Assembly: GCA_046761065.1 (NCBI GenBank)
Contig: JBHIFL010000097.1
Location: 1 to 13,126 of the forward strand
DNA from: Candidatus Heimdallarchaeota archaeon
Lineage (GTDB): Archaea; Asgardarchaeota; Wukongarchaeia; Wukongarchaeales; JBHIFL01
Direction: 5' to 3'
DNA: 13,126 nt
Positions 4,978-10,312 of this stretch are shown piece after piece (position 1 is the first letter of the stretch; every line of letters begins with the position of its first letter). The notes beneath the pieces were generated by a model. It had not been told where the DNA came from. It did no database searches and saw nothing but the letters and a program-made list of their open reading frames with translations. The position numbers and the translations under genes were made by a program.

Positions 4978-5574
4978 ATGGGACGAAAAAAAATCCCCGT
5001 TTTAAATGATTATATGGGAGAAAAGGCCCAAGTTTATGAGCGACGACGAGGTCTTAAACGAATAAAAACTACGACAACTACTAGAGCATTAGAACTTCTT
5101 GATTTAGAAAAAAAAGCTTTCATCCTTGATATCGGGTGTGGGACTGGCTGGTCTACAGAGATTATAAAAAACGAAGGTCATATTGTTATAGGTCTGGATT
5201 TATCAAAAGAAATGATTAAATTAGCCCAAAAAAAAGGATTTGAAACGATAATCGCAGATATGAGATATATTGGGATTAAAAGTAATTATCTTGACGGTAG
5301 CATCTCCATTTCTGCTTTAAATTTTGTTGCAGAAAAATCCAAAACAAAGAAGGAAGTAAGAAATAATTATACCAAGGTAGCAAGCGAAATATTTCGAATT
5401 TTAAAACCAGGAGGGAGAGCCATTTTTGAATATTATCCCCAATCAGATTTAGAATTAAAGATTTCAACACAAGTATTTTCTTCAGTTGGATTTCTGGGTG
5501 GGTTAATTATTGATGGAGTTGGAACAAGAAAAGAACAAAAATTTCTGGTTCTTGAGAAGCCCAAGAAAAAATAA
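4978..5574 (+). CDS. Class I SAM-dependent methyltransferase, Bud23/WBSCR22-like (putative SSU rRNA guanine-N7 methyltransferase)
   Basis: SAM motif FILDIGCGTG and GLDLS. Family-specific segments TRALELLDL, DGSISISAL, LKPGGRAIFEYYP and GFLGGLIID...K..KFLVL. AGGAG SD at 4966-4970. Confidence 0.85.
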   Translation: MGRKKIPVLNDYMGEKAQVYERRRGLKRIKTTTTTRALELLDLEKKAFILDIGCGTGWSTEIIKNEGHIVIGLDLSKEMIKLAQKKGFETIIADMRYIGIKSNYLDGSISISALNFVAEKSKTKKEVRNNYTKVASEIFRILKPGGRAIFEYYPQSDLELKISTQVFSSVGFLGGLIIDGVGTRKEQKFLVLEKPKKK

Positions 5575-9497: not shown

Positions 9498-10312
9498 CTA
9501 GGCAGATAAGAATCCGCCACCAACCGGGATAAACGCTCCATGGACATAACTAGATAATTCACTAGATAATACCAACGCTATCTGGGCTACTTCATCTGGT
9601 TGCCCAAATCGTCCAAGCAGTAATCTTGTCTTAAACTCGATTCCTGATTTTATTCGACCTAATTTAAGCTTGAAAATTTCTTTTGCAACGTATTTAACTC
9701 CAGGAGTTATTATTCCTCCAGGTATAATTACATTAACTCGAAATCCATATTTGCCATATTCTTTAGCTAACGCTCTTGTGATCGCAAGGACTCCTGCCTT
9801 ACTCATAATATAATGGTTAGATCTTTCTCGAATGGTAATATCGCCTCAATTGACCCAACATTGATTATTACTCCTCCCGTCTTTAATTGTCGTTTTATAA
9901 AATTCTGGCACATCCAACAAACTGAATTCAAATTAATCCCCAATATCTTCTCCAAAAAGGGTTCATCACCTTCTAAGAAGTCCTGAAAAGGATATACTCC
10001 CGCATTGTTTACCAGAATATCTAGTTCTTTTCTCGTCAACTTCTCCCATAAACTATCAATATCCTCTTTTTTGGAAAGATCTACATTGTGCAAGTTTATT
10101 TCTAAATCGAACTGGGAAAGCTCTTCTTTTACCACTTTTAACCCTTCATCATTTATATCAACAAGTTCTAACGCAGCACCTGCTTCAACAAATCTATATG
10201 CAATTGCACATCCAATGCCTGTGGCGGATCCTGTAATTAGAGCCCTTTTTTCAGTTAACGAAATAAGTTCAGATATAGATTTCAAATTATTTGTTTTCGC
10301 CGGCTTCCTCAT
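9498..10312 (-). pseudogene. SDR-family (FabG-like) oxidoreductase split by a single-base frameshift
   Basis: The 5' part has TGSATGIG, NNAG and GS; the 3' part has SKAG...RVN...PG...GRFGQPDEVA. Adding one C to CTA ACC ATT ATA TTA TGA gives CTA ACC CAT TAT ATT ATG AGT AAG = LTHYIMSK, restoring YxxxK and a single 271-aa ORF. GAGGT SD upstream of 10312. Confidence 0.88.

Follow-up and report, generated by a model that had tools for sequence, protein, structure and literature searches.

The methyltransferase gene described here encodes a specific relative of the eukaryotic 18S rRNA methyltransferase Bud23/WBSCR22 in an Asgard archaeon, and the family to which it belongs is archaeal as well as eukaryotic. 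The stretch analyzed, hereafter the window, is 13,126 nt of a contig from a genome of the Asgard phylum (4.4 Mb in 234 contigs, 91.5% complete and with 8.2% contamination). Archaeal Bud23-like proteins occur in Asgard and DPANN genomes, and by their conserved positions they can be divided into two subfamilies, A, with the window gene among its members, and B. Our preferred reading, to which we assign a probability of roughly 0.6, is that the window protein is a base methyltransferase that belongs to the Bud23 family and depends on SAM, a subfamily A paralogue of the Bud23 lineage B that would be held by Trm112 and whose target would differ from the m7G made by Bud23. The Bud23-Trm112 pair is treated as a 40S biogenesis factor exclusive to eukaryotes, and an archaeal family runs against that view. 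A widespread archaeal family with two subfamilies would put the origin of the Bud23 step before eukaryogenesis, as had been proposed in an earlier note made from the letters of this DNA, and a family that is old in archaea (Asgard and DPANN) is compatible with that proposal.

Both the reality of the open reading frame (Table 1) and the specificity of its homology to Bud23/WBSCR22 were confirmed. Inspection of the reading frames revealed that the strand opposite 4978-5574 is full of stops and holds no competing frame. The 198-aa product consists of the catalytic domain only, in which Pfam recognized just generic methyltransferase domains (PF08241, Methyltransf_11, was above the cut-off with an E of 2.7e-17), and none of the NCBIfam models matched the window protein at its cut-off. 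A phmmer search of the PDB gave yeast Bud23 (4qtt_B) and human WBSCR22 (7wtw_q and 6g4w_q) as the best matches (1.3e-25 to 3e-25, 92-94 bits). Over the Bud23 chains the E-values ranged from 1.3e-25 to 2e-23, with residues 13-192 of the 198 aligned, and the first match outside Bud23 was a generic methyltransferase at 9.2e-8 (35 bits). The AlphaFold2 model of the protein (pLDDT 95.6, pTM 0.91) has the alternating beta/alpha order of a Rossmann-like class I fold, with D74 and the motif LDIGCGTG conserved. When this model was compared with the PDB by Foldseek, the first eight ranks were all Bud23/WBSCR22 (E between 1e-19 and 2e-17, TM 0.79-0.92, rmsd 1.3-2.5 A), unrelated methyltransferases appearing from 2e-11 onward. 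The earlier note had claimed that the likeness to Bud23 goes beyond the generic SAM fold, which these searches bear out, and had listed a series of collinear motifs, every one of which was present in the HMMER alignments to yeast Bud23 and human WBSCR22. It had also located the C-terminus correctly, at the start of the eukaryotic extension. The model of this basic extension (PF12589, WBS_methylT) had no match in the window protein in the Pfam search, and a profile of the extension had zero matches among the archaeal members of both subfamilies. Because it is missing from all archaeal A and B members, the extension is a eukaryotic addition and is non-diagnostic within archaea. The contig, for which a eukaryotic or viral origin had been considered, is archaeal.

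Table 1. Coordinates of the features discussed (window positions unless a genome and contig are given) and sequence signatures of subfamilies A and B.
Feature	Position	Strand	Remarks
ATP-cone protein, 194 aa	3780-4364	-	C-terminal half without assigned domain; neighbour kept in close relatives
Small gene, 105 aa	4475-4792	-	no Pfam family; 67% identical to the 5608-5889 gene
Methyltransferase gene, 198 aa	4978-5574	+	ATG 4978, stop 5572-5574; Bud23-family class I SAM-dependent, subfamily A
Motif I LDIGCGTG, residues 50-57, SAM-binding glycine loop	5125-5148	+	conserved in A, B and eukaryotes
Beta3 and following loop, residues 89-102, predicted Trm112-binding edge	5242-5283	+	from the complex model
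N115-F116, directly after beta4 (motif IV position)	5320-5325	+	Q-W in B and eukaryotes
E151-Y-Y-P154, end of beta5	5428-5439	+	QFYP in B and eukaryotes
Small gene, 93 aa	5608-5889	-	no Pfam family; brackets the methyltransferase gene with the 4475-4792 gene
Tandem A/B locus	G402:C20:4200-5437		
Signature at the N-terminus			B and eukaryotes: RPE; A: MGRK-type
Signature after beta4			B and eukaryotes: SIS..QW; A: SIS..NF
Signature at the end of beta5			B and eukaryotes: QFYP; A: E(Y/F)YP
Signature in the C-terminal motif			B and eukaryotes: NP..KK-type; A: GTRKEQK-type

The contrast between the two subfamilies was drawn from an L-INS-i alignment of 98 sequences. At least 85% conservation within each of A, B and the eukaryotes was found at 14 positions, of which 11 are identical across all three groups, and subfamily A departs only at the other three, with N115, F116 and E151 in place of Q, W and Q. 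The N and the F were present in 33/33 rows of A, and the Q and the W in 33/33 rows of B and 22/22 eukaryotic rows, while position 151 was E in 94% of the A rows and Q in 97% of those of B and in 100% of the eukaryotic ones. The three sites are coupled: over 272 sequences we found the combination NF+E in 85 and QW+Q in 150, with no mixed case, and every eukaryote-type sequence with the motif carried QW+Q. The replacements of QW by NF and of QFYP by EYYP, which the earlier note had singled out as possible changes of specificity, are thus real, and they are fixed, coupled signatures of subfamily A. Of the marks of a Bud23 orthologue (SIS..QW, QFYP and the RPE N-terminus) the window protein has none. 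It begins MGRKKIPVLNDYMGEKAQVY and misses the motif RPE(H/E)..P.(I/V)(F/Y)Y, only the tyrosine (Y20) being in common. It has instead the coupled NF and E of subfamily A, together with its highest score on the A profile (see below). In annotation, neither the name "Bud23" nor "16S m7G methyltransferase" should be transferred to this gene; the NCBI name of a 94% identical relative is [quoted passage not shown]. Subfamily A itself is best read as distinct, and as undescribed in the literature that we found.

In a comparison with profiles of the three groups, the window protein scored 237 bits on the A profile (made without the window protein and without its nearest relative), 186 on that of B and 137 on that of eukaryotic Bud23. 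Without exception, the 22 eukaryotic sequences matched the profile of B better than that of A (medians of 157 and 125 bits), and generic methyltransferases reached at most 72 bits on the family profiles. The description of the window protein as a "minimal archaeal orthologue" of Bud23, put forward previously, finds no support, since it is subfamily B that keeps the eukaryotic signatures, holds the eukaryotic clade in our careful tree and has the better score against yeast Bud23, by about 34 bits (126 bits and 1.2e-35 for a B protein from another Asgard family vs 92 bits for the window protein). The clade in question comes from a careful IQ-TREE analysis (55 rows, LG+C20 PMSF, rooted on generic methyltransferases that have long branches). 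Subfamily A was monophyletic (UFBoot 91/SH-aLRT 73), B and the eukaryotes formed a clade (87/88) and the eukaryotes (100/100) were nested in B as sister to the B proteins of Loki-type Asgard and of some DPANN (93/84). In the AU test on these 55 rows the tree that joins eukaryotes with A was 10.3 lnL worse and was not rejected (p = 0.125). A quick 98-row tree, obtained with a short search, was dropped as evidence in favor of the 55-row tree because a constrained tree of eukaryotes plus A beat the free one (AU p 0.875), and a FastTree of 231 rows was set aside as too noisy. The deep topology of A, B and eukaryotes is, as far as these alignments go, not decisive. It is because of the motifs and the profile scores, which outweigh the tree, that we take B to be probably the orthologue-like lineage of Bud23 and A a paralogue.

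Relatives of the window protein are widespread in archaea. An exhaustive search of 1.84 billion representatives yielded 260 at E<=1e-10, short (~185-215 aa) and long eukaryote-type forms (250-300 aa) mixed. One protein of the representative library (P0033, 412 aa) matched the window protein in two stretches, and is probably a fused double Bud23-like protein. When each species was represented by a single genome, matches at E<=1e-10 were obtained in 160 of 400 Asgard genomes, with a concentration of the strong and full-length ones in a few families, and full-length relatives were found as well in DPANN-labelled MAGs (Aenigmatarchaeota, Micrarchaeota, Nanoarchaeia, Woesearchaeota and Iainarchaeota). 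In a genome scan for related loci, seeded with a 9-row alignment, full-length matches came from archaea only. The bacterial ones reached just the generic core at about 25% identity, and we have therefore not followed the statement that BUD23 has "orthologs in all taxa including bacteria" (PMC3919561). Two matches per genome were detected in 13/13 matching genomes of one family (f21) and in about 90 of 127 of another (f22), and the two-copy genomes examined had one A and one B each time. Both genes were also present in two genomes labelled "Hodarchaeota". In four Asgard loci (L006, L017, L021 and L025) and in the archaeon UBA543 the A and B genes are adjacent, head to tail. That many Loki-type genomes carry both, some of them in tandem, argues that A and B would be non-redundant. 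As to the window genome, which is 91% complete, searches with a B protein and with the B profile returned the window gene only, and the Aenigmatarchaeota- and Micrarchaeota-labelled MAGs that have its closest relatives also carry A alone.

The genes surrounding the methyltransferase in the window are metabolic, without a link to translation (amidohydrolases, a saccharopine-dehydrogenase-like protein, adenosine deaminase, nucleoside hydrolase and a HAD hydrolase), and include besides a 7TM sensor-like protein and the ATP-cone protein. Two of the reading frames, 9498-9806 and 9803-10312 (both on the minus strand), overlap by 4 nt and look as though a single short-chain dehydrogenase had been cut into an N-terminal and a C-terminal half just before the ..SKAGV.. 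catalytic region, perhaps through a frameshift or because the gene is split. The order ATP-cone gene, small gene, methyltransferase, small gene was found in close relatives only (80-91% identity). Those at 91% identity keep both small genes, and the one at 80% keeps the upstream small gene, its contig ending just past the methyltransferase. Elsewhere in the genome, on contig C53, there is a third copy of the small gene (37% identical). Possibly the methyltransferase gene entered between two small genes that had arisen by tandem duplication. We discarded the twin small genes and the ATP-cone gene as family-wide partners, as they are beside no other A or B locus. Among the relatives, Loki-type A genes were found near uS10 in 27/52 loci, a response regulator and a radical-SAM gene being also near, and B-type genes adjoin eS25 in 11/32 loci (in L006 the eS25 gene is a PF03297 match), counts that overstate independence, coming as they do from kin genomes. 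Because of this kinship the link of A and B genes to translation is weak.

These surroundings bear on the alternative that survives best, namely that the window gene is foreign to this Asgard lineage, through either a lateral transfer between DPANN and the lineage or the mis-binning of the contig. We regard this as a serious contender that still falls clearly short of even odds. The nearest relatives outside the genus are in Aenigmatarchaeota (49% identity) and Micrarchaeota (48%), the other Asgard A copies being at 30-37%, and the grouping with the DPANN-labelled copies was supported by 96/96 in the careful tree. The other two genomes of the same order have no member of the family, neither A nor B. 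The gene is flanked by two copies (67% identical) of one small gene, the GC content of the contig is 0.378 vs a genome mean of 0.42 (close to the 5th percentile), and the contamination of the bin is the 8.2% given above. However, independent assemblies have the same gene order, among them a contig of 98 kb and a Hodarchaeota-labelled MAG from NCBI, and the window contig carries large metabolic genes that are untypical for the tiny DPANN genomes, one of them 41% identical to that of a same-order genome and with no match in the DPANN-labelled MAGs. Besides, a third paralogue of the flanking gene is elsewhere in the bin, the tetranucleotide z-score is only -2.4 and the labels of the DPANN-relative MAGs are themselves unverified. 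Mis-binning is the less likely of the two because of the gene order on independent contigs, the mild shift in composition and the paralogue elsewhere in the bin. The closeness to the DPANN-labelled copies suggests a lateral transfer, and the lineage may have obtained the window gene from DPANN archaea or have it in common with them.

A base methyltransferase of the kind that we favor would be held by Trm112 as its partner, and a search of the window genome for Trm112, as the earlier note had envisaged, did find a small zinc-knuckle Trm112 gene on another contig (C41). One of three Pfam Trm112 matches in the genome (L003) turned out to be a false positive, the zinc ribbon of a TFB. Another locus (L002:649-1647, minus strand, contig C22) was rejected as a stand-alone Trm112, being a Trm112-methyltransferase fusion of 332 aa with an N-terminal Trm112 zinc knuckle and a class I methyltransferase domain; the fusion protein is rich in Arg, Ala and Gly, and the GC of its contig (0.432) is typical of the bin. 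The complex with the window protein was modelled with an 89-aa Trm112 homologue as partner. Over three runs the complex scored 0.87, compared with 0.00 for the best among three controls, and the mark of 0.87 in a benchmark was attained by 58/80 solved complexes and 2/110 mismatched pairs. At least 98% of the contacts agreed among runs and the pLDDT of the partner was 93. In the modelled interface, residues 89-94 (beta3) and 96-102 of the methyltransferase face 8-13 and 49-56 (beta4) of Trm112, and the solved Bud23-Trm112 complex has a beta-zipper between beta3 of the methyltransferase and beta4 of Trm112 (PMC5372719). The co-folding proposed in the earlier note thus gave the expected beta3/beta4 interface, with the qualification that the partner was a stand-in, 61% identical to the interrupted copy of the genome itself, and that the pair resembles a solved complex. 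Because the Bud23-Trm112 structure is already solved, the predicted complex may reflect likeness to it and not binding.

The Trm112 gene of the window genome (L001:1342-1647, minus strand, on C41; also L131:1498-1797) presents a peculiarity of its own. It contains an in-frame insert of 36 nt with two stop codons, exactly at the methyltransferase-binding beta4, and the interrupted translation reads ...VIDGIP*LARGVS*LARGSMLPDKL... In two genomes of the same order the gene is uninterrupted at this point (CCT CAC ATG). The insert can be folded in the canonical arrangement of helix-bulge-helix-bulge-helix, with an outer helix of 6 bp, a central one of 4 bp and an inner one of 8 bp, and with two bulges of 3 nt each on opposite strands. 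Symmetric cleavage would excise 36 nt and leave P-Y-M instead of P-H-M; the fold energy by itself is non-significant (z = -0.88). Splicing-endonuclease introns are rare in protein-coding genes, and known chiefly from cbf5 of Crenarchaeota. On the strength of the modelled fold, we consider the insert a candidate intron of this type (bulge-helix-bulge) in a protein-coding gene.

The positions that separate A from B are placed where the substrate would be expected. In the model of the window protein beta4 spans residues 105-111 and is followed by a short helix (113-116), and E151 closes beta5. The acceptor site of class I methyltransferases is lined by the loops that follow these two strands. From their place in the fold, and from a comparison of Bud23 with xanthosine methyltransferase, we take positions 115, 116 and 151 to have a role in the pocket, so that N115, F116 and E151 would be substrate-pocket residues. 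In the published comparison, the purine is held at those acceptor-site loops (PMC5372719). The mechanism that we propose is that the small zinc-knuckle Trm112 would hold the A protein via a beta-zipper on beta3, and that a purine in one of the RNAs that serve translation (16S rRNA being the likeliest) would be flipped into a pocket lined by Y20, N115, F116, E151 and Y153 and methylated there. The target nucleotide or atom would most likely be unlike the m7G that Bud23 makes at the equivalent of G1338 (E. coli numbering), given the altered pocket and the many genomes in which A occurs alongside B.

The competing possibility is that the window protein works as a functional Bud23, i.e., that together with Trm112 it makes m7G at the 16S equivalent of G1338 (yeast G1575) despite NF and E. 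This would be in keeping with the retained fold, SAM motifs and predicted Trm112 interface, and with the conservative nature of the replacements (amide to amide, aromatic to aromatic, and Q to E), which means that guanine might still fit and that a glutamate would be able to read its edge. The AU test, moreover, leaves the grouping of eukaryotes with A unrejected. The 16S rRNA gene holds the target guanine in GGAUUCCCUAGUAAUCG, which is presumably the equivalent of E. coli G1338, a universal base that says little. The site was located by reading the sequence, as the pattern GGAATNNNTAGTAA did not match, there being a U at the 1340 equivalent in this genome. The same gene (L004, C1:440-2273, minus strand) has 1834 nt vs the 1478 positions of the model, the roughly 350 extra nt being an insertion or an intron. 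That the window protein methylates the G1338 equivalent is possible, as its genome has no other member of the family; the two DPANN-labelled MAGs with the closest relatives are in the same situation. Such a methylation is not, however, the reading suggested by the comparisons as a whole, and we consider it unlikely. A and B occur together in most Loki-type genomes, sometimes in tandem, which points to different jobs, the three differing positions are invariant in B and in all eukaryotes, and Bud23 is placed with B by the profile scores and the careful tree. Finally, a small-molecule or protein methyltransferase of Bud23 ancestry, unconnected with RNA, would fit the metabolic neighbours (adenosine deaminase, nucleoside hydrolase and amidohydrolases) and the generic or small-molecule names given by Pfam and NCBIfam, but is very improbable, given that those matches cover the Rossmann core only (30-64 bits) while the ones to Bud23 span the whole protein, including the N-terminal helices and the C-terminal strands, that the predicted Trm112 interface is retained and that distant A-type genes are found near uS10 and beside B-type copies.

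Returning to a Trm112-held base methyltransferase with a target of its own, a broader evolutionary scenario can be offered tentatively, with chances that we place only a little below one half. The Bud23 family would have duplicated in archaea before the diversification of Asgard (and DPANN), B alone would have been inherited by eukaryotes, and A, with its N-F-E pocket, would depend on Trm112 to place a separate base methylation on the small-subunit rRNA (or tRNA) of archaea, a mark other than the m7G of the P site. It is predicted that organisms with B will have m7G at the P-site guanine, and those with A a second, different mark. If so, A-only lineages such as the window organism would be without the Bud23 mark and would have that of A instead.

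The specialist reviews on Trm112 deny archaea any protein with significant homology to Bud23, and describe the equivalent rRNA guanine as unmodified there (PMC5372719, PMC6144793). Among the eukaryotic ribosome biogenesis factors surveyed over 727 archaea, none was confined to Asgard, and Bud23 is not discussed in the text of that survey (PMC8481954). In the searchable literature we found no paper joining Bud23 with Asgard, Lokiarchae* or DPANN, and no readable archaeal Bud23 profile in the supplements of Birikmen and Juettner. The present analysis contributes the signature of three coupled sites, the comparisons by profile and by AU test, and a genome with A only that has an affinity to the DPANN copies.

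Among the known systems, the closest is Bud23 of S. cerevisiae and BUD23-WBSCR22 of humans, which with Trm112/TRMT112 is the 18S rRNA (guanine1575/1639-N7)-methyltransferase (PDB 4QTT/4QTU, 6G4W and 7WTS-7WTW). The window protein shares with it the whole catalytic domain at 32% identity (TM 0.85-0.92), the SAM motifs, the tyrosine of the N-terminal helix, the SIS after beta4, the YP after beta5, the GF.GG strand and, by prediction, the Trm112 beta-zipper on beta3. Unlike Bud23, it has neither the RPE motif nor the basic extension (PF12589), it carries N, F and E for Q, W and Q, and it falls outside the eukaryotic Bud23 clade in the careful tree, a placement that is statistically not decisive. 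With subfamily B it shares the short build of a catalytic domain alone (~185-215 aa), 37% identity, the same host groups and, in some genomes, a tandem location. B differs from A in that it keeps RPE, QW and QFYP, scores higher against Bud23 and is often beside eS25. The remaining Trm112-activated enzymes (Trm9, Trm11, Mtq2, METTL5 and Hvo_0019 of H. volcanii) are, like the window protein, of Rossmann fold and bind the Trm112 zinc knuckle by beta3, and AfTrm11 and Hvo_0019 were among the next-best fold matches after Bud23 in Foldseek. However, their matches were far weaker (2e-11 to 5e-11, TM about 0.63-0.72), and they differ from the window protein in their N- and C-terminal elements and in having motif IV of the NPPY/DPPY types.
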